DNA from: an uncultured Gammaproteobacteria bacterium
GTDB lineage: Bacteria > Patescibacteriota > Microgenomatia > Daviesbacterales > UBA10151
Reading direction: 5' to 3'
NCBI GenBank assembly: GCA_964394855.1
Contig: CAYMZD010000003.1
Coordinates: 22,607 to 86,606, forward strand
Length of the DNA: 64,000 bases
Shown here: one piece after another, positions 2,731 through 24,340 of the stretch
Position numbering within the stretch: the stretch's first letter is position 1
Layout: each line of letters opens with the position of its first letter
The notes under the pieces: model-generated
The model's database searches: none
What the model saw: only the letters and a program-made list of their open reading frames with translations
Told to the model about the DNA's origin: nothing
Made by a program: the position numbers and the translations under genes

Positions 2731-3461
2731 TTTCGATATTTATCAATCACTTTTTCCGATTTTCCATCATCAATAATCTTACCCTTATCTAAAAGGATCA
2801 CTCTTTGACAAAACCTTTGAACCAACTCCATGGAATGGGAGATGATCACAATTGTAACTCCATTTTGGTGAAACTGCTCCATTTTTTTTAAACATTTCTC
2901 TTGAAAACCAATGTCTCCCACAGCCAGTATTTCATCAACCAATAAAATCTCCGGATTGATGTGAATAGCAATGGAAAAGCCAAGTCTCATATACATCCCG
3001 GAGGAATAATGCTTAACTGGTGTGTCAATAAAGTCTGCAATTTCCGAAAAATCTACAATATCTTTAAATCTTTCATCTATCTCTTTTTTAGATAAACCCA
3101 GTATAGTACCGTTTAGGTAAATATTATCTCGGCCGGAAAGTTCGGGATGAAAACCAGCCCCCAGCTCAATCAAAGGACTAATTCTACCATTAACTTCTAT
3201 CTTACCTTTGTTGGGTGTCAGTACACCGGCTATTAATTTTAAAATTGTGCTTTTACCTGAACCATTAACTCCAATAATCCCTATTGATTGACCTATCGGA
3301 ACCTTAAAACTAGCATCTTTAAGAGCCCAAAATTCTTCTTGGGCTTGTGGTTTAAAAAAATCCAACAAAGCTTGCTTTAAAAAAAGCTTTCTGCCTTTTT
3401 TGAATTTTTTACCCACCTTATTAAAGGAAATGGCTATGTTATTTTTCATATTAAATGACAT
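2709..3461 (-). CDS. Polysaccharide-export ABC transporter ATP-binding protein (Wzt/TagH/KpsT-like, NBD only)
   Basis: Walker A GVNGSGKST, signature YSSGMYMRLGFS, Walker B ILLVDEILAVGD. I trimmed the start to MSFNMKNN (the track start at 3518 would overlap wzm by 68 nt). Confidence 0.85.
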   Translation of the reverse strand: MSFNMKNNIAISFNKVGKKFKKGRKLFLKQALLDFFKPQAQEEFWALKDASFKVPIGQSIGIIGVNGSGKSTILKLIAGVLTPNKGKIEVNGRISPLIELGAGFHPELSGRDNIYLNGTILGLSKKEIDERFKDIVDFSEIADFIDTPVKHYSSGMYMRLGFSIAIHINPEILLVDEILAVGDIGFQEKCLKKMEQFHQNGVTIVIISHSMELVQRFCQRVILLDKGKIIDDGKSEKVIDKYRKWMKLQD

Positions 3462-4212
3462 CGCCAAAAAATTTGTCTCTGGTTTTAAAATAAATATACC
3501 CCAAAATAAGTACCACAAAAGCTAAAGTGCCAGAATAGGCAAAACTTGACCAATCCGGACCAGTACCAAATAGAATAGTGTTTCTATAGGCATCAATGAT
3601 ACCTGTCATGGGGTTAAGGTAAAATAGCATTTTTAAATCAGCTGGTATCAACTCCGGTGAATAAATAACAGGAGTTAGATACATCCAGATAGTTAAAAAA
3701 ACACCTAAAACATTTTCCACATCCCTAAAAAAAACATTGGTGGCAGATAATATTAAAGATATCCCCACCATTAAAATAAGTTGAATTATAAATACCAGGG
3801 GGACAAAAATTAAACTTGGGTGAAACCTAATTTGGTATAAAATTAAAAAAAATATTAGTATTAAACTTGTTAATAGAAGATCAATCATTTTGGCTGAAAT
3901 GGCTGAAAAAGGAATAATTTCTCTGGGGAGCTTAACTTTGGTAATTAGACTGGCATTAGACATGATACTCCCTGTGGCAGCGGAGATAGAATTTGTTAAA
4001 AAAATCCAAGGAACCAGGGCCACAAATAAATAAATTGGGTAGGGAATGCTTCCTGTTGGTACTTTAAATAGATGGGAAAAAACAATACTTAAAACCAGTA
4101 AGTTTAAAAGGGGAACTAAAATAGCCCAGGCATAACCCAGAACAGACTGGTTATACCTGGCTTTTATTTCTCTAAAAGTGAGCTGCCAAAATAAATCTTT
4201 GTACTGCCACAT
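3451..4212 (-). CDS. ABC-2 type polysaccharide-export permease (Wzm/TagG-like)
   Basis: Six-TM ABC-2 permease with the typical start MWQYKDLFWQLTFREIKARYNQSVLGYAWAIL. The track ORF extends to 4314 but that extension runs through a tRNA gene. The ATG at 4212-4210 is the plausible start. Confidence 0.8.
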   Translation of the reverse strand: MWQYKDLFWQLTFREIKARYNQSVLGYAWAILVPLLNLLVLSIVFSHLFKVPTGSIPYPIYLFVALVPWIFLTNSISAATGSIMSNASLITKVKLPREIIPFSAISAKMIDLLLTSLILIFFLILYQIRFHPSLIFVPLVFIIQLILMVGISLILSATNVFFRDVENVLGVFLTIWMYLTPVIYSPELIPADLKMLFYLNPMTGIIDAYRNTILFGTGPDWSSFAYSGTLAFVVLILGYIYFKTRDKFFGDVI

Positions 4213-4216
4213 ACTG

Positions 4217-4290
4217 TGCACGCGTCTGGATTCGAACCAGAGACCTCTTGCGTGTGATGCAAGCGCTCTAACCGACTGAGCTACGCATGC
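4217..4290 (-). tRNA. tRNA-Val (anticodon CAC), 74 nt, no encoded CCA
   Basis: Hand-folded cloverleaf on the minus strand. Acceptor GCATGCG/CGCGTGC with one G-U pair, D-arm GCTC-AGTCGGTTA-GAGC, anticodon stem CTTGC/GCAAG with loop ATCACAC, T-arm TCTGG-TTCGAAT-CCAGA, discriminator A. Confidence 0.85.
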
Positions 4291-4304
4291 TCTGATTAAA
4301 TAAC

Positions 4305-4333
4305 ATTCTAGCATTACTACTATTGCATCTCAA
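4305..4333 (-). promoter_or_regulatory. Candidate sigma70-like promoter for tRNA-Val: -35 TTGAGA, 17-nt spacer, -10 TAGAAT
   Basis: Read by eye on the minus strand. The -10 ends about 14 nt upstream of the mature tRNA 5' end. It lies in the 68-bp divergent intergenic region shared with lepB. Confidence 0.25.
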
Positions 4334-4358: not shown

Positions 4359-4967
4359 ATGGATGATAACCTTTATGCACCTAATATGGACTTTCCTCAA
4401 GAGAACTACCCTAAAAAAAGTCCCAACGGCTTTTCATCTCATTTGGTTGATTTTATTCAAACACTGGTCATCTTTGGAGCCATTTTTGCAGTCATTTATC
4501 TTTTTATTGCTCAACCTCACAAAGTTTCTGGGAACTCCATGCTGCCAAATTTTCAAAATGGAGACTATATTCTGACTGATAAAATATCTTACCGATTTAC
4601 TAGTCCCCAAAGAGGAGAAGTGATAGTTTTAAAAAATCCCCGAAATGAGGCTCAAGATTTTATTAAACGAATTATAGCTTTGCCACAAGATACTATTAAG
4701 ATAGAAAACAATTTTGTTTATGTTAATAATCAGAAAGTCACTGAACCATATTTACCAAATAATATTTCCAGTTCTGTGGAAGGTTTTTTAATGAATGGAG
4801 AAGAAATAGTAATGGCCTCAAATCAATATTTTGTCATGGGTGATAACAGAATGCACTCATCTGACTCTAGACAGTGGGGACCAGTGACCAGAGAAGAAAT
4901 TATCGGCAGAGTTTTTTTTAGATACTGGCCTCCATCAAAATTTGGGCTAATTAAGAATTATCCTTAA
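4359..4967 (+). CDS. lepB: Signal peptidase I (S26 family)
   Basis: N-terminal TM helix, Ser box GNSMLPN, Lys box KRIIALPQD, and C-terminal GDNRMHSSDSRQWGPV. Confidence 0.85.
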   Translation: MDDNLYAPNMDFPQENYPKKSPNGFSSHLVDFIQTLVIFGAIFAVIYLFIAQPHKVSGNSMLPNFQNGDYILTDKISYRFTSPQRGEVIVLKNPRNEAQDFIKRIIALPQDTIKIENNFVYVNNQKVTEPYLPNNISSSVEGFLMNGEEIVMASNQYFVMGDNRMHSSDSRQWGPVTREEIIGRVFFRYWPPSKFGLIKNYP

Positions 4968-5805
4968 TATTAAAATACCCCACCACTGCCTTGTGTATCT
5001 CCTGTAAGGCTTCTGTTGTCTTTGGTGGAAAGCCCTCCACCGTGATCTCCAATCTAGCCTTTGTGCCTGTTTGGGTACATTTTACTCTGGATTTAATTGT
5101 TTGAGATAAAATATTAGTGAGGTCTTTTTCGATATTATCAACAGTTTCTGAAATTATATGCATTCCCGCCACCACAGCCGACTTTTTGGGACCCATACCA
5201 ACTTTAGCCCTCATTCGGCGAACCAATTCTTCTGTACCTCTCACAGATAAATTTCTCTTCAAGACTTCCTTATAAGCTTCTATTAGAAAATGAGGATCTT
5301 CCAACGCTGATAAGGCTCTGGCATGACCTTCGGTTGTTTGACCGGACATTAGAGCATCCTTGAGAGCATCTGGTAGAGTTAAAAGTCTAATGGTATTGGA
5401 GATATAGGAGGGGCTTTTGCTAACACGTTCCGAGATCTCGGAGTTACCCAGACCAAACTCATCCATTAATCTTTTATAAGCTTGAGCTCTTTCCAGCGGG
5501 TTTAAATCAACTCTTTGAACATTCTCCACAATAGCCATTTCTAACATACCCTGGGGAGTAGTTTCACGAATAACTACTGGTACTTTAACAAGACCTATTA
5601 GCTTAGCTGCTCTCCAGCGACGTTCCCCAGCCACAATCTGATACCCAGCTGGTGTTTTTGCTACTACCAGGGGCTCTAAAATACCATGTGCTCTGATCGA
5701 TTCAGCCAACTCTGATAGGGATTCAGGGGTAATCAGTCCCCGAGGCTGCAAAGGGTTTGGTTCAACCAAGTCAATATCCAATTCAAAAGTTTGTTCTTCC
5801 ATCAT
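4951..5805 (-). CDS. parB: ParB/Spo0J chromosome-partitioning protein
   Basis: ParB-box motif [12 protein letters not shown], a helix-turn-helix region and N-terminal [10 protein letters not shown]. The 3' end overlaps the lepB 3' end by 17 nt (convergent). Confidence 0.85.
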
Positions 5806-6047
5806 AAAACATTAACAAGTATCTTGTTTTGCCTTTTTAAGAACTTAACTTGACCAGGGGAGACAGCAAAAATTGTGTAGTCGTTTCCCTGTTTTGTGCC
5901 AACTCCCGGGAAAACTTTATTACCTTTCTGCCTGACAATAATGTTTCCTGGTTTAACATTCTCTCCATCGAAAAGCTTCACGCCTAAACGTTTAGATATT
6001 GAATCTCTATTTGTTTTGGTTGTTCCTCCGCCCTTTTTGTGTGCCAT
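5802..6047 (-). CDS. rpmA: 50S ribosomal protein L27
   Basis: [24 protein letters not shown] is the canonical L27 N-terminus. The stop overlaps the parB start (ATGA). Confidence 0.9.
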
Positions 6048-6057
6048 GTTTGAGTTT

Positions 6058-6345
6058 TCACACCTGCCAAATCACTTTGACAATTTTTGCTCTTGATCCC
6101 CGCACTTTTCGATAATTGGCCTTCGCGTGAAACTTAGCCACTCTGGTTTTCCTGCCCTTTTCCTTACTTGTAACCTCAATAGGTAATTTAATATCAAGGT
6201 AAGGTTTACCTACTTGAAGTTTCCCATCCTCGGCTAAAAGAAGTACTTTAGTCTCAAATTTTTCTGGAGATGTTAAGGCTATCTCTTGTCCTGGACTAAT
6301 TTTATATTGTTTACCAGCAATTTCACAAATAGCATATTGCAACAT
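6058..6345 (-). CDS. rplU: 50S ribosomal protein L21
   Basis: [20 protein letters not shown] is an L21-like start. Its size and its position immediately upstream of rpmA fit L21. Confidence 0.8.
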
Positions 6346-6367
6346 GCCCCCAATTTTAAACCGAAAA

Positions 6368-7444
6368 CTACCTCATGTCAATCCTAGCCCGGTGACTCTC
6401 TACAGAAGCAAGTAGCCCCAGGGAGATAAGAGTACTGATGAGCGAACTTCCGCCATAGGAAATTAAAGGTAGGGTAATCCCCGTGATTGGCAGAAGACCG
6501 ATATTCATACCAATATTAACCACAGTCTGAAACATTAACACAGCACTCACTCCAATTGCTATCAGATACCCCAAATAATTTTGAGCTTGCAGTGCCACTT
6601 TTAGGCTATAGAAAATTAGAAAAAGGTAAATAATTATTATGATAAGCGTGCCCAAAAAACCTAATTCTTCTGCCATAGAGGCAAAAATAAAATCAGTCCT
6701 ATATTCTGGTAAAAATTGTAATCTACTTTGGGTACCATAACCCAAACCTCGGCCTAAAAATTGTCCAGAACCAACTGCAATAATAGATTGAATAGCCGTA
6801 TAGCCGACCTGGAGAGGATCACTGCCTGGTGACAAAAAAGTATTTATTCTTTGCTTCTGATAATCGTGTAGCGAAAGCCATACCACAGGCAAGATAAAGA
6901 CAAATAGCAGTATTAGGGTGAGCATTTTTTTTAGTGATATGTTGGAAGCAAAAAGCATAAACGACCACAAAGCTACGATGGTAATAGTCGTGCCTAAATC
7001 TGGCTGTTTAAATATCAGAAAAACAATTGGTAAGGTAAGCAGGATGCTTTTTAAAATATTAATCCATGTAGGTCGATTAAACGCCCAAAAAAAACTTAAA
7101 ACAAGTATCAAAACTGGTTTGGCAAATTCTGAAGGTTGAATATTAAAAATTCCCAAAGGAATCCAGCGAATAGAGCCCCGAGATTCTATTCCCAAGATAA
7201 AAACCAGGATAAGTAATAAAATTATCACAAAATAGCTTGGTTTAATAAAATTAACCAGAGTTTGATAATCTATTTCGGAAATTAAAAAATACAAAAATAT
7301 ACCAACGATGGCAAAAATAAGTTGCTGCAAGCCTAAGTTAAAAGAGGTGGAAAAAATGACAGATACACTAAAGGTTAAAAGCAAAAATAAACTGATTGTA
7401 ATTGGCCAATTTATGAATTTAAGCACCATTTCAAATTTTAGCAA
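6368..7444 (-). CDS. rodA: SEDS-family peptidoglycan polymerase (RodA-like, outside the dcw cluster)
   Basis: About ten TM helices and a conserved C-terminal SEDS block GSGQFLGRGLGYGTQSRLQFLPEYRTDFIFASMAEELGFLG. The start may instead be MVLKF at 7429, which would avoid the 14-nt overlap with ileS. Confidence 0.7.
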   Translation of the reverse strand: MLKFEMVLKFINWPITISLFLLLTFSVSVIFSTSFNLGLQQLIFAIVGIFLYFLISEIDYQTLVNFIKPSYFVIILLLILVFILGIESRGSIRWIPLGIFNIQPSEFAKPVLILVLSFFWAFNRPTWINILKSILLTLPIVFLIFKQPDLGTTITIVALWSFMLFASNISLKKMLTLILLFVFILPVVWLSLHDYQKQRINTFLSPGSDPLQVGYTAIQSIIAVGSGQFLGRGLGYGTQSRLQFLPEYRTDFIFASMAEELGFLGTLIIIIIYLFLIFYSLKVALQAQNYLGYLIAIGVSAVLMFQTVVNIGMNIGLLPITGITLPLISYGGSSLISTLISLGLLASVESHRARIDMR

Positions 7445-10337
7445 CTTTTAGCTTTTTATTTTTTACAATAGAAACAGAGGTTGTAGATTTTAATATTTGT
7501 TGCTCAAACTCCTTTGGCCAAGCAGGAGCTGCAATTTTGGTCTTATCAATCAAGGTAAGATTTTGTTCTTTTCTAAGTTGCTGTATCTGTCGTATCAGCT
7601 CTCGTGTCTCTCCCTCATCTTTAAGGGATTGAGTAATCTTTATATCCAAGCTAATAACAGGTTCTTTTGATGGAGACTTTTGGTACTCAACTTTTTTAAC
7701 ATTTACTTCATCTGCCAGAATCTGCTCCAGCTTTGGATCTAGTTTTTCATTCCATTTATATGTCAATAATCCCAGTGGCTGTCTTAACTTTATTCCGACT
7801 TCCTTTCTTTTGGCATGGACTGCTTCTGTAATCTTCCTTACCAGAATCATATCTTTGACTAGTTCTTCATTAAGTAGTGATTTACCCCCTTGGGGATAAT
7901 CTTGTAGATGTACTGATTCATCTCCAGTGAGATTTTTATACACTTCTTCGGCAATAAATGGGGTTAATGGAGCCAAAAGCAAACTTGTGGTAACCAATAC
8001 TTCATACATCACCGATAAACAAGTATTTTTATCCTCTTCCTCGGCTTCCGGTCCAACCCTGTCCCTCGATCTTCTAATATACCAAGTTGAAAAATCATTG
8101 ACCACAAAATCTTCCATTGCTCGAGAAGCAGTTGCAGCGTCATATTTTTCCAAGCTTTCATTAACTAGAATAATCAGCGCATTCAATTTAGCCAAAATCC
8201 ATTCATCCAATACAGTCAAACCACTGCCACTTTTTTCACCTTCCCATTTTGCCAAATTAGCATAATCTACAAAAAACTTATAGCAGTTCCAGAAAATTAG
8301 AACAAATCTTTTTCTGACATCATCGATTAGGTTATAACCGAAACGCAAATCTACCCCCGGATTTGCAGAAAGGTAAATCCACCTCATGGCATCAGATCCT
8401 ACTCTATCAAAAGCTTCATCAAGTGAAACAGCATTACCTTTTGAACCATGCATTTCCTCCCCTTTTTCATCCACAACCTTGCCGTGCCCGAATATTCTTT
8501 TAACCGGAACTTCCTCCTCTAGAATTGAACTCATAGCAATCATGGCATAAAACCAAAGTCTTGTTTGTTCATACATCTCTACAGAAAAATCAGGAGGAAA
8601 CCACTCACTCCAATATTTCTTATCTCTATTATAGCTTGGTACTTCACCAGCTTTCGGAGTAATTGTTGAGTAAGGGACAATCCCGGCATCTAACCACGGA
8701 TTACCTACATCAGGTACTCTAATAGCTAAAGAGCCACACTTAGAACATTTTAATTTAATCTGATCAACCCACGGTCTGTGGGGAGAGTGGCCTTCAAATT
8801 CCTCCCAACCTTCTATGGCTTTTTCCTTTAATTCATCAAATCCTCCTACTACCTCAAAGTTGTCACACTTTTCACATTCCCAAATAGGTAAAGCTAATCC
8901 CCAATATCTTTTTTTGGATATCAGCCAGTCGTGTAGATTTTCTAACCAATCGAGTTCCCTCTTTTCTACAAACTTGGGCTGCCATTCCATTTTTCGGGCA
9001 ATCTTGATCATTTTCTGTCTGAAAGTCTCCTTATCTTTAGGATCTTCTTTATCTACAGCAATGTACCATTCATCCACCAATCTCCAAACAAGTTCTGTCT
9101 TGCACCTCCAACAGGCTGGGTATTTATGAGCAAATTTGACAATATCAAATAAAAATTTACCATCCTCGAATTTCCCCAAATAGTTAAAGATTAACTGCGG
9201 TTCATCTTTGGCGTTTTTACCGGAAAATTCTCCTAAATCACTCAAATACTTTGCTTCTTCATCTATCAGCTCTATAACCGGCAGATTTCTTTCCTTACCC
9301 AATGCAAAATCTTCTGTTCCTGCGCCTGGTGCAATATGAACTAATCCTGTTCCTTCCTCTTCAGAAATTGGCAAAATGACAGGATCGGTTGCCACTATTT
9401 GATGTTTAATATTCCCCATAGATTTTTGTACTCTAGGTAGATTATCAAAAGGTGTCTCGTACTCCAGGCCGACAAGTTCTCTACCCTTAATCACTTTTTC
9501 TATCTTAAGACTCAATTTTTTAGCAGAAACCCTACCTAAATAATACCTATTTCCCGCCACTTGACCAGTTACCAGAGCATATTCTAAATTGGGATCTAAG
9601 GCTACAGCTACATTTCCCGGCAAAGTCCATGGGGTAGTTGTCCAAACTAGGAGATATTCATTTTTTCTTCCAACAATTGGGTATTCAATATAAATAGACT
9701 CATGAATTAGTTCTTTGTAATCCTCAGCTGACATTTCATGTTGAGAAATGGCAGTTCCACAACGAGGACACCATGGTACACTGTCGTGGCCTTTATATAA
9801 CCAACCTCGCTGATTAGTATTTTTCAGAAAATTCCAGATCATATAATTATTCTGATCAGAACCTGTATGATAAGAATTATCCCAGTCCATAAATTGTCCC
9901 AACCTTTTTGATTGTTCGGTAATTACATCCCCATATTTTTGAACTCTTTCCTTGCAAAGATTAATGAACTTTTCTAGAGAAGCTAGCTTATCACCTGGAA
10001 CAATATTTTCTATATCCCTTTTATTTTTAAGTCCAAGGGTTTTTTCAACCTCTACTTCTACCCATAACCCTTGTTCGTCATAACCATTTTGAAATCTCTG
10101 TTTATAACCTTTCATGTTATAAAACCTTTGCCACATATCCTTGTAAGTTCTTCCCCAAGCATGGTGTACACCTAAAGGATTATTCGCGGTCTTGGGTCCG
10201 TCAAGAAAAGAAAACTTTTTGCTGGAAGAATTATTTCTATGAAGATATTTTTTTAATATTTTTTGTTTTTCCCAATAATCTAAGAGTTCTCTCTCCAGCC
10301 CTGGAAAATCAACTTTTGCTGAAACTGGTTTGAACAT
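7431..10337 (-). CDS. ileS: Isoleucyl-tRNA synthetase, type 2 (archaeal/eukaryote-like)
   Basis: 968 aa. The start MFKPVSAKVDFPGLERELLDYWEKQKIL is the type-2 IleS signature. HIGH region PKTANNPLGVHHAWGRT, KMSKS-like EMHGSKGN, CP1 editing domain and Zn-finger CxxC pairs are all visible. Confidence 0.9.
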   Translation of the reverse strand: MFKPVSAKVDFPGLERELLDYWEKQKILKKYLHRNNSSSKKFSFLDGPKTANNPLGVHHAWGRTYKDMWQRFYNMKGYKQRFQNGYDEQGLWVEVEVEKTLGLKNKRDIENIVPGDKLASLEKFINLCKERVQKYGDVITEQSKRLGQFMDWDNSYHTGSDQNNYMIWNFLKNTNQRGWLYKGHDSVPWCPRCGTAISQHEMSAEDYKELIHESIYIEYPIVGRKNEYLLVWTTTPWTLPGNVAVALDPNLEYALVTGQVAGNRYYLGRVSAKKLSLKIEKVIKGRELVGLEYETPFDNLPRVQKSMGNIKHQIVATDPVILPISEEEGTGLVHIAPGAGTEDFALGKERNLPVIELIDEEAKYLSDLGEFSGKNAKDEPQLIFNYLGKFEDGKFLFDIVKFAHKYPACWRCKTELVWRLVDEWYIAVDKEDPKDKETFRQKMIKIARKMEWQPKFVEKRELDWLENLHDWLISKKRYWGLALPIWECEKCDNFEVVGGFDELKEKAIEGWEEFEGHSPHRPWVDQIKLKCSKCGSLAIRVPDVGNPWLDAGIVPYSTITPKAGEVPSYNRDKKYWSEWFPPDFSVEMYEQTRLWFYAMIAMSSILEEEVPVKRIFGHGKVVDEKGEEMHGSKGNAVSLDEAFDRVGSDAMRWIYLSANPGVDLRFGYNLIDDVRKRFVLIFWNCYKFFVDYANLAKWEGEKSGSGLTVLDEWILAKLNALIILVNESLEKYDAATASRAMEDFVVNDFSTWYIRRSRDRVGPEAEEEDKNTCLSVMYEVLVTTSLLLAPLTPFIAEEVYKNLTGDESVHLQDYPQGGKSLLNEELVKDMILVRKITEAVHAKRKEVGIKLRQPLGLLTYKWNEKLDPKLEQILADEVNVKKVEYQKSPSKEPVISLDIKITQSLKDEGETRELIRQIQQLRKEQNLTLIDKTKIAAPAWPKEFEQQILKSTTSVSIVKNKKLKVAKI

Positions 10338-10372: not shown

Positions 10373-11512
10373 CTAGCGGTCACGCAAAAAGGCGGGGATT
10401 TCCAATTTATCAGCCTCTGAAAGTTCTTCCTCTCCTTTTACCTCCAACTGTTCTGAAGGAGGTTCTTCTTCCTTTTTAGTATCGTCCCAATCTTGTGGCT
10501 GCTGTGTCAAAGATGCCGAACCCATGCCCGCTCCTACATATTCCCGCAACCTTCTTCTTGATTCATCAAAACCAGTGGCAATAACAGATATCTTGACCTG
10601 ATCCAACTGATCATCTTTGATAGTGGCCCCAAAGATAATGTTAGCATCAGGATCAGCAGCTTGAGCTATAATTTGAGCAGCATCATTAACTTCGTTCATA
10701 CCCAAATCTGGACCACCCACAATATTAAAAAGTACACCTTTTGCTCCCTCAATTGAAACCTCAAGGAGCGGAGAAGCAATTGCCATACGAGCGGCAGCGG
10801 CCGCTCTATTTTCTCCACCGGCCACTCCAATACCCATTAAAGCTGAACCGGCATTATTCATAATCGTTTTCACATCAGCAAAATCGACATTGATTAAACC
10901 GGGCATGGTTATCAGATCAGAAATGCCCTGTACCCCTTGACCCAAAACAGAGTCAGCCAATTTAAAAGCCTCCTGAAGCGTCATATTTTTATCAACTACT
11001 TCTAGCAGTCTTTGGTTGGGAATAACAATCAAGGCATCAACCTTGTCTTTTAATTTCTCTATTCCCTCTTCAGCCACTATTAATCTTCTGGTGCCCTCAA
11101 AAGAAAAAGGCTTGGTGACAACAGCTACTGTTAGAGCTCCTATACTTTGGGAGATTTGGGCCAAAGTAGGTGCTGCTCCAGTACCAGTTCCACCACCCAT
11201 GCCGGCTGTGATAAACACCATATCTGCATCCTGTAGAACATCTTGCAGTTTTTGCATTGATTCTGCAGCTGCTTCCTCACCAATACTAGGATCACCACCA
11301 GAACCAAGTCCTCTAGTTAAACTTTCACCAATTTGTACCTTAGTGGGACTTTGATTTGTTAGCAATGCTTGAGCGTCTGTATTAACTGCCACAAATTCCA
11401 CACTTTGCATTTGCTGAACGGAGATCATTGAAGAAAGAGTATTCCCACCGCCACCCCCTAACCCCACTACCTTTATCTTGGCAAATCTTTGAACATCAGG
11501 TTTTATAAGCAT
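10373..11512 (-). CDS. ftsZ: Cell division GTPase FtsZ
   Basis: Tubulin signature GGGTGTGAAP, N-terminal KVVGLGGGGGN, and a C-terminal acidic/conserved peptide. Confidence 0.95.
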   Translation of the reverse strand: MLIKPDVQRFAKIKVVGLGGGGGNTLSSMISVQQMQSVEFVAVNTDAQALLTNQSPTKVQIGESLTRGLGSGGDPSIGEEAAAESMQKLQDVLQDADMVFITAGMGGGTGTGAAPTLAQISQSIGALTVAVVTKPFSFEGTRRLIVAEEGIEKLKDKVDALIVIPNQRLLEVVDKNMTLQEAFKLADSVLGQGVQGISDLITMPGLINVDFADVKTIMNNAGSALMGIGVAGGENRAAAAARMAIASPLLEVSIEGAKGVLFNIVGGPDLGMNEVNDAAQIIAQAADPDANIIFGATIKDDQLDQVKISVIATGFDESRRRLREYVGAGMGSASLTQQPQDWDDTKKEEEPPSEQLEVKGEEELSEADKLEIPAFLRDR

Positions 11513-14829: not shown

Positions 14830-15921
14830 TTATGTTTGTTTCGAGATGTTAAATAATATCCCAATTGCAGCCAAATTTACCACCAGAGCAGAACCACCAT
14901 AGGAGATAAATGGTAGGGGAACACCTGTCAAGGGTAAGAGGGAGGAGATAGCCCCCAGATTAACTATGGCCTGTATCCCCAGCCACAGAGTTAATCCCGA
15001 AGCTAAAATTTTACCAAATTGATCAGTGGTCTTGTCTGCTATTTTAAAACCTCTAATGACAAGAGCAATAAAAAGAGCAATTAAGAGCATAGAACCTAAA
15101 AATCCCAGCTCTTCTCCAATTACAGCAAAAATCGAATCAGTTGTGACTTCGGGAAGATAATATTTTTGTCTAGACTGTCCCAATCCCAGTCCAAAAAGTC
15201 CACCTGTACCAAGGGCAATTAAAATCTGTGAAATATGGTAGGAAAATCCTTGTGGATCTGAAAAAGGGTCTAAAAAAGCCAAGACTCTTTTTCTGCGATA
15301 TTCTGAAAAAATTACCAGTAATAAAAAAGCTGCCACAGCTACTGGCAAGCTTAAAACTATCCTCCATAGTGATCCTCCTGCAATAATATATAAGCCCAAT
15401 GAAGTAGCCACAAAGACAGCAGTCGAACCCAAATCTTTTTGCAAAAAGCCCATGATAAATCCGACTATTAAAATCAGTCCCAACAAAGGTTTAAGCCTGG
15501 CTCCTTTATCAAAAATAGCCGAAAGCCAAAGCACAGCTGATAATTTAAAAACCTCTGCTGGTTGAATAGTCAAAAAATTAAGATTCAACCATCTGTGAGC
15601 TCCTCCCGCTGATGTACCTATTCCCGGTATAAAAACCGCCAGAAGAAGCAGTACTGAACCTGCTAATGCCAAAAAAGAAATACTTCTTAATTTATGGTAA
15701 TCAAAATTGGCAAAAAAAATTGCCACCAACACCCCCAAAACCATCCAAATGAGCTGCCATCTAATGTAGTAAAAACTATCACCAAAATCCCGATAAGCTT
15801 GTATAACAGAAGCATCATAAACAGATACCAAACCAAAAATGACCAACATGGAAACTACGAGGATAAGCGGGATATCAAAAGTTCTCTTTTGTGGATTTAG
15901 GTACGTTTTATTGAGCCTCAT
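14830..15921 (-). CDS. ftsW: SEDS-family lipid II flippase/polymerase FtsW
   Basis: Polytopic with C-terminal SEDS motifs. Located between mraY and murG. The ATG at 15921-15919 makes an ATGA overlap with the mraY stop. The track's GTG at 16008 would overlap mraY by 91 nt. Confidence 0.8.
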   Translation of the reverse strand: MRLNKTYLNPQKRTFDIPLILVVSMLVIFGLVSVYDASVIQAYRDFGDSFYYIRWQLIWMVLGVLVAIFFANFDYHKLRSISFLALAGSVLLLLAVFIPGIGTSAGGAHRWLNLNFLTIQPAEVFKLSAVLWLSAIFDKGARLKPLLGLILIVGFIMGFLQKDLGSTAVFVATSLGLYIIAGGSLWRIVLSLPVAVAAFLLLVIFSEYRRKRVLAFLDPFSDPQGFSYHISQILIALGTGGLFGLGLGQSRQKYYLPEVTTDSIFAVIGEELGFLGSMLLIALFIALVIRGFKIADKTTDQFGKILASGLTLWLGIQAIVNLGAISSLLPLTGVPLPFISYGGSALVVNLAAIGILFNISKQT

Positions 15922-16949
15922 CGCGAAAGTAAAGCTAACCAGAGCCCAAAAATAGCAAACATTGCTCCAGCCAACCAAAATCTGGTTACTATTTTTGGTT
16001 CTTCCCACCCGATATATTTAAAATACATATGTATTGGGGCTACAGGGAAAGCTTTTCTCCTCAAAAATCTTTTGGAAATCATCTGGATGGCAGAACTTAA
16101 GACAATTATGACATAAACTCCACCAATAATTGTCAATGCTAAAACTTTACCTGTTAAAAGTCCCACCACGGCCAGTGTAGCCCCAAAGGCTAAAGCACCA
16201 GCGTCTCCCAAATAGATTCTGGCTGGCCACACATTAAAATAAAGATAAGCAAATAAAGCTCCAATCCAGATACCAATAAAACTAGCCAGTGTTAAATTAA
16301 GTGAAGTTGTCGCCAGAGCAAGTAGAGCAAATAGACAAATAACTAAAAGCCCAGTTGATAATCCATCTAAACCATCAGAGATATTATAGGCATTGGAGAA
16401 GGAGACAATGATAAATGCTGCTATCGGAATATACCAAACCCCAATAATAAAATTTCCCAAACCAGATATATAAATATTATTAAGTCCAATCATTCTATAA
16501 AGCATAAATGCCACCAAAAAAGCAAAAATTATCTGCAAGATTAGGATAAACCTTCCTTTTATCCCCGCATATTTTCCACTAAAAGCTGTAAAGATTTTTC
16601 TGATATCATCCATCAGTCCTATGATAGCAAATGAAATAAAAGTGAATAAGATAATAAATAAATAGTCCGGACCGTCTAAACTATTATAACTATAAAAAGA
16701 AGTATTGATGATAGTTAAAATAGTAATAAGTATTATTAGTAGTATTCCTCCTCCCACTGGAGTATCCACGTCTTTCCCAGCTAGCAGCTTATTATGAATA
16801 GGGGTGGTGCTGTCATCATAGCCTTTGGGAATTGGTTTTTTATACTTCCTTCTTAAAATAAAAAGCAAATTAATAAAAGGAACCATAAAAAAACTGGTCA
16901 CCAAAAAAGAAAGCAGAACCAGTCCTAAAAGTTGACTTAATGGATTCAT
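15918..16949 (-). CDS. mraY: Phospho-N-acetylmuramoyl-pentapeptide transferase MraY
   Basis: NAYNISDGLDGL (MraY DGxDGL motif), ten TM helices, and an ATGA overlap with the upstream gene. Confidence 0.9.
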   Translation of the reverse strand: MNPLSQLLGLVLLSFLVTSFFMVPFINLLFILRRKYKKPIPKGYDDSTTPIHNKLLAGKDVDTPVGGGILLIILITILTIINTSFYSYNSLDGPDYLFIILFTFISFAIIGLMDDIRKIFTAFSGKYAGIKGRFILILQIIFAFLVAFMLYRMIGLNNIYISGLGNFIIGVWYIPIAAFIIVSFSNAYNISDGLDGLSTGLLVICLFALLALATTSLNLTLASFIGIWIGALFAYLYFNVWPARIYLGDAGALAFGATLAVVGLLTGKVLALTIIGGVYVIIVLSSAIQMISKRFLRRKAFPVAPIHMYFKYIGWEEPKIVTRFWLAGAMFAIFGLWLALLSR

Positions 16950-18022
16950 ATTTTTTTAATAATTCGTTTGACAACCTCGTCTAATCTAACTGACTTTGCT
17001 CCTTTAACCAAACAAACATCTCCTTTTACCAACACCTTTAAAAGTTTAGACACCATTTGCGGATTTTGCAAATTAGCTTCCATCTTTTCTGTTAAAAAAC
17101 CTAGTCTTTTTAACTCATCAGCTATAATATTGGCTGCTCCTACTCCCAAAAAAACTAGATCTACTTTTTCTCTATATATTTTTTGAGCTATTTTTCTGTG
17201 TAAGATCTCTGTATCTATATTGTCATCTTTCATCTCTCCAAAACATAAAATCCGTCTTCTGACAGATAACTGCTGCAGCGTATCAATCGCACCTTCAACA
17301 GATAAATAGGTGCCCTCACCCAGATCATCCAAAACCACAGCACCATTAAATCCTGGTAAAACTTGCAGTTCATTTTCCTGTTGGGGAATTTTCTCCAGGT
17401 AATTCTTAATAGCAATCAGTGAAATTCCTTCGTTTAAAGCCAAGGCACTGGCTGCTAAAATTGAGTAAATATGATGTTCACCTAAAATAGGAAGTTTTAT
17501 TTTTACCCTCTCTACTCCATAATTAATTTCAAACGAGGAATTAAAATCCTCAATTTTTAGATTACTAAGCCAAACCTGGCAATTTTCACTATCCTGACCA
17601 AAATAAATAACTCTGGCTTTTGAGTTATCAGCTAATTTTCTCACTGCCAAATCATCATAATTTAAAATTACCAACCCATCATTTGATAATGTACTCGAAA
17701 TTCTATTTATTTCACTGATTATCTTCTTACCAGCTAAAGTCAAACTACTCACAATAATAACATTGGGAGTAATGTTCTCCCATGAATTATCCATATGGTC
17801 TTTCTTTTGATTTAAATCCAAGATTATTCTTCCCTTTTTAGGTCTTATAGCCCACAATTTAATTCCTGGTTTGGTAGTAATGACTGAATATTTTTTAGAC
17901 AGAATGTGCTGCAGCGTCAGTATGATAGTTTTGCTAAAATTACCGACCACACCAATAAAAACTTCTTGGGGAATAATTTTGATATATTGTTTGCCAATAA
18001 AAGATAAAAATGGAATTTCCAA
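16946..18022 (-). CDS. Mur ligase family protein, MurF-like by position, with no N-terminal domain and a degenerate P-loop
   Basis: Central-domain end ILGEHHIYSILAASALAL and the C-terminal domain (GEGTYLSVEGAIDTL ... LGVGAANIIADEL) look Mur-ligase-like. The ATP P-loop reads GVVGNFSKT instead of the usual GxTGTNGKTT. Confidence 0.5.
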   Translation of the reverse strand: MEIPFLSFIGKQYIKIIPQEVFIGVVGNFSKTIILTLQHILSKKYSVITTKPGIKLWAIRPKKGRIILDLNQKKDHMDNSWENITPNVIIVSSLTLAGKKIISEINRISSTLSNDGLVILNYDDLAVRKLADNSKARVIYFGQDSENCQVWLSNLKIEDFNSSFEINYGVERVKIKLPILGEHHIYSILAASALALNEGISLIAIKNYLEKIPQQENELQVLPGFNGAVVLDDLGEGTYLSVEGAIDTLQQLSVRRRILCFGEMKDDNIDTEILHRKIAQKIYREKVDLVFLGVGAANIIADELKRLGFLTEKMEANLQNPQMVSKLLKVLVKGDVCLVKGAKSVRLDEVVKRIIKKI

Positions 18023-19284: not shown

Positions 19285-19863
19285 TTAAATTCTCGCCTTA
19301 AATCGAAATACAGCAGATAAAATCAAGTGCTTACTTAACTTAAGATCCTCGGGGGCGATCTGTTCAATTTCTCCATTTTCTAAGACTTTGATAGTTTTTA
19401 CTTTTGACTGAAGTAATTTATTTAAAAATAAATTCCCTCCAACCGTACCCGGAAGTCCCTTAATTTCATCAGTTTGTAAACCTTGCTTATTTAAAAATTC
19501 CCATAGCCTGTTAATACTTACTCCTGAATCAACCTCTATCAAAGCTTCATCAACTCCTAAAGATTTTTGAGCCACCTTACCTTTAATACCCACTATATTC
19601 ATGTGTTGAGTTCTGTTTTTAACCACCAGTCCATCAAAACCTTGATCAGCAATAACAATCTTACTGCCAGAACCTATCACCAAATAAGGAACAGTCAGTT
19701 GTTCTGCCATTTGGACAATTTTAGCAAGTTCATGAGTAGTAAAAGCCACGAAAAAAATTTTAGATGGACCACCCAAAGCTACTGTTGTATGGTTGGCCAG
19801 GGGTTCGTCCATTTTGAAACGATCCCTGCCAAATGAACTAATAAGTAAGTTTAGTTTATCCAT
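19285..19863 (-). CDS. murB: UDP-N-acetylenolpyruvoylglucosamine reductase MurB, short form: FAD-binding domain only, 192 aa
   Basis: LANHTTVALGGPSKIFFVAFT, GSGSKIVIADQGFDGLVV and GLPGTVGGNLFLN match the MurB FAD-binding half. The ORF ends 1 nt before the murA start, so the roughly 100-aa C-terminal substrate-binding part is absent. Confidence 0.6.
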   Translation of the reverse strand: MDKLNLLISSFGRDRFKMDEPLANHTTVALGGPSKIFFVAFTTHELAKIVQMAEQLTVPYLVIGSGSKIVIADQGFDGLVVKNRTQHMNIVGIKGKVAQKSLGVDEALIEVDSGVSINRLWEFLNKQGLQTDEIKGLPGTVGGNLFLNKLLQSKVKTIKVLENGEIEQIAPEDLKLSKHLILSAVFRFKARI

Positions 19864-23051: not shown

Positions 23052-23917
23052 ATCTTGGCAAAAATTCTTAATTTGGCCGATCTTGACCCTTGATTGGCCA
23101 CCATCTCCTTTGTAGAAGGAGTGATCGGCTTTTTGGTTAAAATCTCTCCTAGCTTAAGATCTTGCCAAGATTTAAATTGCTTTTTAACTATTCTATCTTC
23201 CAGAGAATGAAAACTAATGACCACTAGCTTACCACTTGTTTTTAACAAATCAAGTGCTTGCGGCAGCGCTTCTTCCAGCGCATTTAGTTCATCATTAACA
23301 GCAATACGCAGAGCTTGAAACACTTTAGTAGCTGGATGGATTTTTCCATGCCTACCTTTAATCCTTTCTACGATACTGGCTAACTCTGTAGTTTTGTGTA
23401 TTGGTTTCACCGAACGGGCGAGAACCACAGCAGCAGAAATGGCTTTAGCAAATCCTTCTTCACCCAGTTTAGTAAATAGTTCATATAACTCTCCTTTATT
23501 TAAACCATTAACAAGATCCATTGCTTTGACTGGTAATTTCAAATCCATCCTCATATCTAATGGTCCATTTTTAGAAAAGGAAAAACCTCTTTTGGAACTG
23601 TCCAGTTGCCAAGTTGATACTCCCAAGTCAAATAAAATACCAGCAAATTTTTTGTTGACTAATTTTTTCAGGTTTCTAAAGTTCCCTGCTACTTGTTTAA
23701 ACCTCTGACCCCCAAGTCTTAACTTTCTAAATCTGGTGCTAGTTCTTGCTACCGCCTCCAGGTCTATATCTAAACCAATAACGTTTCCTTTACTCTTTAA
23801 GATTTCCAGTGAGTGGCCGCCATCTCCCAAAGTAGCATCCAAATACCACCTACCAGGTTTTATATCTAGAGCTTGCACGACCTCTTTCAGAAGAACGGGC
23901 TTATGATAATCTACCAT
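23048..23917 (-). CDS. rsmH: 16S rRNA (cytosine1402-N4)-methyltransferase RsmH (MraW)
   Basis: MVDYHKPVLLKEVVQAL ... DATLGDGGHS is the RsmH signature. Start chosen at M23 of the track ORF, which leaves a 17-nt overlap with mraZ. Confidence 0.85.
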   Translation of the reverse strand: MVDYHKPVLLKEVVQALDIKPGRWYLDATLGDGGHSLEILKSKGNVIGLDIDLEAVARTSTRFRKLRLGGQRFKQVAGNFRNLKKLVNKKFAGILFDLGVSTWQLDSSKRGFSFSKNGPLDMRMDLKLPVKAMDLVNGLNKGELYELFTKLGEEGFAKAISAAVVLARSVKPIHKTTELASIVERIKGRHGKIHPATKVFQALRIAVNDELNALEEALPQALDLLKTSGKLVVISFHSLEDRIVKKQFKSWQDLKLGEILTKKPITPSTKEMVANQGSRSAKLRIFAKI

Positions 23918-24311
23918 ACCTTTGTTTGATTTTAGCAAGTTCTCTACCCCATAATCTAGCGTCCCAGATTTCAAAATGATCACCAGCGCCTACTATGACC
24001 GCTTCTTTCTTCACCCGCGCGAAAGTCAGCAGGGCCGACGGAACCACAAACCTACCTTGAGTGTCTAACTCCACTGACTCGCTACCTGAAAACAAATATC
24101 TTCTTAAATTTCTGGCCCGTTCTTCTGTGGCAGAAACCTCTATTTGCTTTTTGGCTAATTCCTCAAAACCCTCTTTACTAAAACCCCAGATACAACCCTC
24201 AAAACCACGACTTAGGACAATCTCTTTACCAGCTAGCTCATCTCTTAACTTCCTGGGTAGAATTAACCTTCCCTTACCTGTAAAATTGGTGTAATATTCG
24301 CCCAAAAACAT
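23901..24311 (-). CDS. mraZ: Transcriptional regulator MraZ
   Basis: MFLGEYYTNFTGKGRLILPRKLRDEL shows the duplicated MraZ/SpoVT-AbrB fold. The start was moved to M4, where the RBS GGAAGG lies 9 nt upstream. The track ATG at 24320 directly abuts the RBS. Confidence 0.85.
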   Translation of the reverse strand: MFLGEYYTNFTGKGRLILPRKLRDELAGKEIVLSRGFEGCIWGFSKEGFEELAKKQIEVSATEERARNLRRYLFSGSESVELDTQGRFVVPSALLTFARVKKEAVIVGAGDHFEIWDARLWGRELAKIKQRYGRLS

Positions 24312-24340
24312 GAAGGACATCCTTCCTGATTGGGCAGATT

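Follow-up and report, generated by a model that had tools for sequence, protein, structure and literature searches.

The 64-kb window analysed here (64,000 nucleotides (nt) of contig CAYMZD010000003.1, assembly GCA_964394855.1, taken as a whole) carries a parB gene that is the final gene of a co-oriented string leading from the division and cell wall (dcw) cluster through ftsZ, ileS, a rodA paralogue, rplU and rpmA. The dcw part of the string comprises mraZ, rsmH, ftsI, mur genes, mraY, ftsW, murG, ftsQ, ftsA and ftsZ, and the intergenic gaps from ftsZ to parB measure −14 to 35 nt. The ATG of parB (5805–5803) shares bases with the TGA of rpmA (5804–5802) in a minus-strand ATGA, rplU and rpmA are separated by a spacer of 10 nt, and the 3′ end of the convergent lepB overlaps parB by 17 nt. 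Coordinates, hidden Markov model identities and direct reading of the sequence all agree with the initial annotation of this DNA, which described rplU, rpmA and parB as co-oriented, tightly packed and joined by an ATGA overlap; the purely ribosomal context that it gave holds for these three genes and is otherwise incomplete, the string really being dcw cluster–ftsZ–ileS–rodA–rplU–rpmA–parB. The window comes from Candidatus Daviesbacteria (Microgenomates); its ParB matches a database protein exactly, and the nearest relatives of this protein bear the names Candidatus Daviesbacteria or Microgenomates.

The linkage recurs throughout the lineage. A scan in which a single genome stood for each GTDB species yielded 80 loci, at ParB identities of 55–78%, named Daviesbacteria, Curtissbacteria, Amesbacteria, Shapirobacteria and Beckwithbacteria. 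In all 80, rpmA is followed by parB, and the same pair is found in five more distant clusters; the linkage, whose conservation in related genomes had been left as a point to check, is therefore not a product of chance. The order IleRS–RodA–L21–L27–ParB, closed by a convergent LepB, is seen in nearly all of the 80 loci and again in more distant members with 47–54% ParB identity (Woesebacteria, Pacebacteria and further clusters). In the 74 loci for which the spacing between the end of rpmA and the start of parB was determined, the genes overlap in 16, lie 0–10 nt apart in 42 and 11–70 nt apart in 14, and are separated by more than 70 nt in 2. Several observations on individual loci accompany this picture. 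Woesebacteria, Pacebacteria and some other relatives carry a UPF0020 (PF01170) methyltransferase gene of about 380–400 aa between rplU and rpmA, and locus L071 has an epimerase gene between rpmA and parB. An apparent L27–ParB fusion in locus L048 (about 9970–9990) is not real and results from masked letters N, read as XXXXXX. The window holds two paralogues of the SEDS (shape, elongation, division and sporulation; FtsW/RodA) family, one inside the dcw cluster (14830–16008, minus strand) and one overlapping the end of ileS (6368–7444, minus strand), the latter being kept beside rplU in all relatives.

The upstream end of rplU is where transcription of this group is predicted to begin. In the window, the −10 hexamer of a sigma-70-type promoter ends 7 nt 5′ of the rplU ATG, and a TTGACA-N17-TAnAAT element with its −10 ending 6–9 nt from the rplU start occurs in most of 65 related loci, with a score of 9/12 or better in 57 and of 10/12 or better in 41. 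Because the −10 abuts the start codon, the rplU–rpmA–parB mRNA is predicted to be leaderless or nearly so. The adjacent, co-oriented L21 and L27 equivalogs lie together behind this predicted promoter, as expected of an rplU–rpmA operon. Within the 120 nt 5′ of parB, the best promoter-like match in related loci is mostly 8/12, which is the background level, and only 5 of 73 loci have a Shine–Dalgarno (SD)-like core ahead of parB. The promoter, the missing promoter and SD-like core at parB itself, the near-abutting codons and the lineage-wide synteny together support the proposal of the initial annotation that parB is the distal gene of the rplU–rpmA operon, and make co-transcription from the rplU promoter and termination–reinitiation translation of parB well-supported predictions. 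Neutral conservation of gene order, in which parB is expressed from an unrecognised promoter within rpmA and has no functional tie to the ribosomal genes, could draw on the compactness of candidate phyla radiation (CPR) genomes with their common overlaps, on the tolerated methyltransferase and epimerase insertions and on our promoter scan having been of the sigma-70 type only; we consider it improbable, as a gap of no more than 10 nt or an overlap is found in 58 of the 74 loci, promoter-like scores before parB are near chance, and the rplU promoter is conserved in both sequence and position.

Other transcription signals were also seen around these genes. Among the starts of the window open reading frames (ORFs), 5 of 55 have an abutting promoter (−10 ending 5–10 nt before ATG, at least 9/12) against 0.46 expected at random positions, and such a placement at gene starts implies leaderless mRNAs. 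A hairpin resembling a terminator (4988–5010, plus strand) lies just past the lepB stop, embedded in the 3′ coding sequence of parB. The first terminator-like site for parB itself is at about 4125–4141 (minus strand), and parB transcripts may thus read through lepB in antisense.

No partner gene accompanies parB in the sequence searched. The search space was the window itself and about 20 kb around each related locus (1.41 Mb of flanking sequence in total). The stretch that reaches from 58 kb upstream of parB to about 8 kb downstream of it is free of ParA-type genes: the six frames of the window contain no deviant Walker A motif (KGGxGK[ST]), Soj has no tblastn match in the window, and no ParA, CbiA or AAA_31-type family is found in its 55 real-looking ORFs of at least 120 aa (58 listed). 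These results uphold the earlier description of parB as lacking a flanking parA and facing a convergent lepB. The initial annotation had also allowed for a parA immediately beyond the window; a Logan contig of the same strain extends about 3 kb past the left edge, and ParA was not found there. Soj-like sequence is absent within 10 kb of parB in each of the 80 species loci, and no parA lies within the same distance of parB in six further lineages. The parAB operon with a nearby parS that characterises a canonical ParB is thus not present in the sequence searched, and window parB, lying outside a parAB operon and lacking a ParA-binding motif (see below), is an orphan parB. Such an arrangement is less unusual than had been supposed, since about 23% of the parB genes on chromosomes are not part of a parAB operon; a chromosomal parB is present in all 27 Daviesbacterales species of Dataset S1 from the same study (PMC12704722).

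The protein retains the nucleotide-dependent core of the family. The cytidine triphosphatase (CTPase) domain with Box I–III (ParB_N, PF02195, E = 1e-30) and the helix-turn-helix (HTH) domain (HTH_ParB, PF17762, E = 6e-32, full length) are both present, and window ParB aligns without gaps with the chromosomal ParBs of Myxococcus, Caulobacter, Thermus and Bacillus at 44–48% identity. Residue equivalences were taken from ungapped HMMER alignments to 6t1f, 7bnk and 1vz0. The cytidine triphosphate (CTP) motifs QPR (residues 20–22), GERRWRA (60–66) and ENVQR (94–98) are invariant in 81 Microgenomates ParBs. In an AlphaFold2 (AF2) model, the C-terminal unit consists of a helix (220–234), two strands (238–246 and 249–257) and a second helix (260–283) with a predicted local distance difference test (pLDDT) score of about 77–88, and this modelled α-β-β-α unit is presumably the dimerisation domain. 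Foldseek with the whole model returns only known ParB, Noc and KorB structures, and the last 81 residues, when compared with PDB sequences, give chance matches only. PF23552 is precomputed on Chloroflexota ParBs (P0131, P0271–P0389) and on no listed Microgenomates ParB (P0001–P0120), a distribution in the sequences that suggests that the C-terminal domain of Microgenomates ParBs may also have diverged.

At the N-terminus, residue 8 of window ParB aligns with residue 36 of Caulobacter ParB, and the peptide that bears the ParA-binding motif is therefore missing; an in-frame stop codon two codons 5′ of the ATG means that no longer N-terminus is possible. The motif [LFI]G[KR]G[LFI] is absent from all 81 homologues, and the N-termini of the Spo0J and Caulobacter ParB controls are positive. 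Instead, 4–20 mostly acidic residues precede the NPLQPR box across the 81 sequences, with a mean net charge of −3.5 over the first 12 residues. The initial annotation had offered two options, a ParA-independent role (such as a CTPase clamp or a nucleoid-occlusion-like function) or a parA elsewhere; the first of these, in the form of the clamp, is favoured by the absence of the motif from all 81 homologues and the invariance of the CTP motifs. A Noc-like factor, that is, a ParB paralogue that binds chromosomal sites and the membrane and keeps FtsZ off the nucleoid, would suit a gene that ends a co-oriented dcw–ftsA–ftsZ string and whose top-listed NCBIfam match is the Noc model (TIGR04285). That match, however, scores 211.5 bits against a cut-off of 315, the positions of Noc Q173, K179, K184 and R201 are occupied by P, T, T and G, the acidic N-terminus offers no basic amphipathic helix, and identity to Noc structures is 35–36% compared with 44–48% to ParB structures, all of which make a Noc-like role very improbable.

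Changes are also found on the surface that reads DNA. Pro132 of window ParB (codon 5410–5412) occupies the position of Arg173 of Caulobacter ParB, which contacts parS and is invariable among the parS-specific variants of a 160,000-variant screen (Jalal et al., PMC7383237). Across the 81 homologues, this position is Pro in 66, Ala in 13 and Gln in 2, and the position of Gln162 is Asn or Thr (Asn in the window). The recognition helix differs from the Caulobacter GKSRSHVANT, and the contact residues K171, S172, N178, G201 and R204 are kept. A search for parS had been proposed as a check, and for the window and flanks it came out negative: no canonical parS (TGTTNCACGTGAAACA) with up to three mismatches lies in the window, and the 1.41 Mb that flanks parB in related loci holds none with up to two mismatches, compared with about 2.5 in shuffled controls. 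Perfect palindromes of 10–16 nt and near-palindromic 16-mers over the same 1.41 Mb, taken as alternative parS candidates, yielded nothing recurrent. Three enriched 10-mers were rejected: GATTTAAATC is a fixed site inside parB that encodes a conserved D-L-N-P, and TTTCCGGAAA and TTTTGCAAAA are scattered without common flanks. Altered DNA-reading residues, together with the cell-wall and polysaccharide genes that flank the locus in a conserved manner, would also be compatible with a CTP-dependent transcriptional regulator acting from operators on neighbouring envelope and division genes, as the orphan ParB-fold proteins KorB and VirB do (PDB 8qa8/8qa9 matches; PMC10770331). As neither palindromes nor operator-like repeats recur in the 1.41 Mb surrounding the gene, and with a similarity to KorB (E = 4e-17) far weaker than that to chromosomal ParBs (E = 2e-48), we regard a regulator of this kind as quite unlikely.

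A family-wide comparison places these losses in the surroundings of the Microgenomates proteins. An HMMER search covered 1.84 billion cluster representatives, and the 150 nearest representatives at 50% identity were compared. The closest clusters have a short N-terminus, no ParA-binding motif, and P, A, Q, T, L or V at residue 173. From about 48% identity outward, the N-terminal extension, the motif and R173 are all found, with motif and R173 both present in 105 of 149. R173 is present in 127 of the 149 nearest representatives that can be aligned at this position, and among the 150 nearest, sequences without the ParA-binding motif tend to be without R173 as well (odds ratio 8.4, p = 2e-5). Chloroflexota supply the nearest canonical ParBs, and P0131, the nearest motif-bearing ParB, belongs to the same phylum. 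The best explanation of these patterns is that the gene encodes a genuine chromosomal-type ParB that has become uncoupled from ParA in the Microgenomates lineage.

Several points weigh against this explanation or limit it. Chromosomal parS sites usually cluster near oriC. Real parS sites may lie near oriC outside the sampled sequence, and the argument for changed specificity joins residue substitutions to the lack of a canonical parS in about 20 kb per genome only. The P0130 cluster keeps R173 with the same synteny, as the sole exception among the closest clusters, and loss of the arginine is thus not tied to gene order. As the search took in the window and about 20 kb per genome, parA may lie farther away or a ParA-like partner of a non-canonical kind may exist, and SMC was not seen in the window or in the sampled related sequence. 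Taken as a whole, the AF2 model reaches only a moderate pLDDT of 69, and the C-terminal domain has no Pfam match, PF23552 included, and no PDB sequence match. The missing SD before parB is weak evidence of coupling, because SD use is low genome-wide (an SD-like core in 17 of 55 window ORFs). A rival reading is an ordinary ParABS system whose operon is split, this ParB still working with a parA/soj and canonical parS that lie elsewhere, for instance near oriC; it could draw on the limited search space and on the retained R173 of P0130-type relatives. Against such a split stand the absence of the ParA-binding motif in 81 of 81 sequences, with no N-terminal extension possible, and the loss of Arg173 in all 81 aligned Microgenomates ParBs and in most sampled family clusters. 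Across bacteria, moreover, the motif tracks and strongly co-occurs with a neighbouring parA (PMC12704722), and a split ParABS is on balance unlikely.

We therefore favour, with a probability of roughly 60%, a ParA-independent CTP clamp that is encoded by the distal cistron of an rplU–rpmA operon closing the division cluster and that probably has a diverged loading site. Under this proposal, transcription from the conserved promoter at rplU would give a leaderless rplU–rpmA–parB mRNA, to which read-through from ftsZ–ileS–rodA might add further transcript. Ribosomes ending on rpmA would re-initiate at the overlapping or abutting parB start, and as a consequence the supply of ParB would follow ribosomal-protein synthesis and growth. 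Lacking the N-terminal ParA-activating peptide, the protein would be unable to drive a ParA gradient. It would instead load at a centromere-like site, close on CTP and spread, organising the chromosome and recruiting SMC-type partners; with the arginine needed for canonical parS lost, the loading site would probably not be a canonical parS. In Streptococcus pneumoniae, an orphan parB functions together with parS and SMC in the absence of ParA (PMC7022226), and by analogy the Microgenomates ParB most likely organises the origin or chromosome and recruits SMC or other partners. The sequence shows directly who the genes are, their overlap, the synteny, the motif content, the conserved promoter and the lack of parA and parS from the DNA searched; that the genes are co-transcribed and translationally coupled, and that the protein is independent of ParA, has a changed DNA specificity and loads SMC, we infer from it. 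A fuller version of the proposal, a ParA-free chromosome-organisation system that has a new centromere sequence (Arg173 and Gln162 being replaced) and in which ParB dosage is tied to ribosome synthesis and the division cluster through a leaderless transcript and reinitiation coupling, is offered more tentatively and is doubtful in its entirety.

Table 1 Features of the parB locus in the window, with methyltransferase inserts in related loci (coordinates of the respective locus).
Feature	Position	Strand	Basis or remark
parB	4951–5805	−	284 aa; PF02195 and PF17762; TIGR00180 191 bits, cut-off 58
rpmA (L27)	5802–6047	−	81 aa; PF01016; TIGR00062 97.5 bits, cut-off 90.35
rplU (L21)	6058–6345	−	95 aa; PF00829; TIGR00061 46.5 bits, cut-off 43.7
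lepB (signal peptidase I)	4359–4967	+	PF10502, TIGR02227; convergent with parB
ATGA start/stop overlap of rpmA and parB	5802–5805	−	direct sequence reading
Sigma-70-type promoter TTGACA-17-TAAAAT	6353–6381	−	11/12 matches
GERRWRA codons (residues 60–66), Box II CTP-binding arginine patch	5608–5628	−	invariant in 81 ParBs
HTH recognition-helix region, residues 129–143	5377–5421	−	HMMER alignments
C-terminal domain, residues 215–284	4954–5163	−	AF2 model
rodA/ftsW paralogue	6368–7444	−	Pfam; between ileS and rplU
ileS	7431–10337	−	Pfam; co-oriented upstream gene
ftsZ	10373–11512	−	Pfam; co-oriented upstream gene
mraZ, start of dcw cluster	23901–24320		Pfam
UPF0020 methyltransferase insert, L071	7416–8645		
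UPF0020 methyltransferase insert, L082	8559–9671		
UPF0020 methyltransferase insert, L085	8422–9588		
UPF0020 methyltransferase insert, L086	8591–9742		
UPF0020 methyltransferase insert, L087	5652–6860		

The remaining genes of the window encode glycosyltransferases and polysaccharide functions, and its G+C content is 36%. Neither dnaA nor smc was found in the window, and the GC skew does not change sign across it, so that neither origin nor terminus lies within view. A candidate link to smc came from a gene annotated SMC_N that lies 9 kb from parB in locus L003; its matches are of the AAA_15/AAA_21 type, it is not conserved, and the window strain has an acyl-CoA-synthetase-like fusion at the equivalent place, and it therefore provides no evidence for smc linkage. 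Between about 52000 and 60000, G+C falls to about 31% (34–40% elsewhere), GC skew is near zero and gene orientation is mixed, the content being PMT_2-type glycosyltransferases and an 863-aa protein with an F5/8 type C domain; the stretch may be an acquired or fast-evolving surface-glycan island. An ABC-2 permease ORF (3451–4314, minus strand), also in the Logan gene call, crosses tRNA-Val(CAC) (4216–4290, minus strand), and its true start is probably the internal Met at 'MWQYKDL'. A MurB-like ORF of only 192 aa (19285–19863, minus strand) has the FAD_binding_4 domain alone, and a Mur ligase ORF (16946–18022, minus strand) matches only the end of the middle domain and the C-terminal domain; reduced enzymes or wrongly called starts may account for both.

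No bacterial centromere system is more widespread than ParB/parS, whose DNA specificity is regarded as nearly invariant; only one natural switch has been studied well, that of Noc and its binding site NBS, and it serves as a model for the evolution of specificity. If the fuller proposal is true, the Microgenomates proteins would represent a new natural ParB/parS specificity class in the manner of Noc/NBS. An ultrasmall CPR class has lost the ParA-contact peptide together with the parS-reading arginine and keeps a strongly conserved CTP switch (ParB identity 55–80% in the 80 species loci and 47–51% in the most distant clusters); it would be a second natural example and a first clue to the organisation and segregation of DNA in uncultivated, genome-reduced bacteria. 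The placement of parB after rplU–rpmA and near ftsZ and rodA suggests a simple growth scaling of a segregation factor. Should parA and canonical parS be present elsewhere in these genomes, the finding would shrink to a curiosity of gene order. Orphan ParBs are already known and common, and the window ParB is a real but moderately novel variation; its interest is moderate and would be higher if a new centromere specificity were demonstrated. We found no literature on ParA, ParB or ParABS in Patescibacteria or Microgenomates, on the rplU–rpmA linkage or on replacement of Arg173.

Compared with known systems, window ParB most resembles canonical ParB/Spo0J of Caulobacter, Bacillus, Thermus and Myxococcus, with which it shares the CTPase fold with GERRxRA, ENxQR and QPR, the HTH_ParB domain, a length of about 280 aa and a C-terminal domain, the 44–48% identity extending over the N-terminal and HTH domains. 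It differs from them in lacking the N-terminal LG(R/K)GL ParA-activating peptide, in the replacements Arg173 to Pro and Gln162 to Asn on the DNA-reading surface, and in its gene, which follows rpmA at the end of the dcw cluster with no adjacent parA and no canonical parS nearby; the C-terminal domain, unlike that of the nearest canonical ParBs from Chloroflexota, has no PF23552 match. The orphan ParB of S. pneumoniae likewise has no adjacent parA and offers the model for a presumed ParA-independent organisation of the origin and recruitment of condensin, but that species retains canonical parS sites near oriC (PMC7022226). The Microgenomates protein, in contrast, has lost the arginine that reads parS, and the sequence searched contains no parS. 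The two also differ in genomic context, which here is rplU–rpmA, and the absence of parA here covers the sampled sequence. From Noc of Firmicutes, window ParB is set apart by P-T-T-G in place of Q-K-K-R, the missing membrane-targeting helix, the sub-cut-off score and a closer similarity to ParB. Finally, as in rplU–rpmA operons elsewhere, L21 is followed closely by a co-oriented L27 behind a strong promoter, with an unrelated gene at the 3′ end; the distal genes of these operons in other bacteria are lineage-specific, for example obg or ysxB. In contrast, the distal gene of the Microgenomates operon is parB, its promoter abuts the start codon so that a leaderless mRNA is predicted, and in some relatives a UPF0020 methyltransferase gene separates rplU from rpmA.

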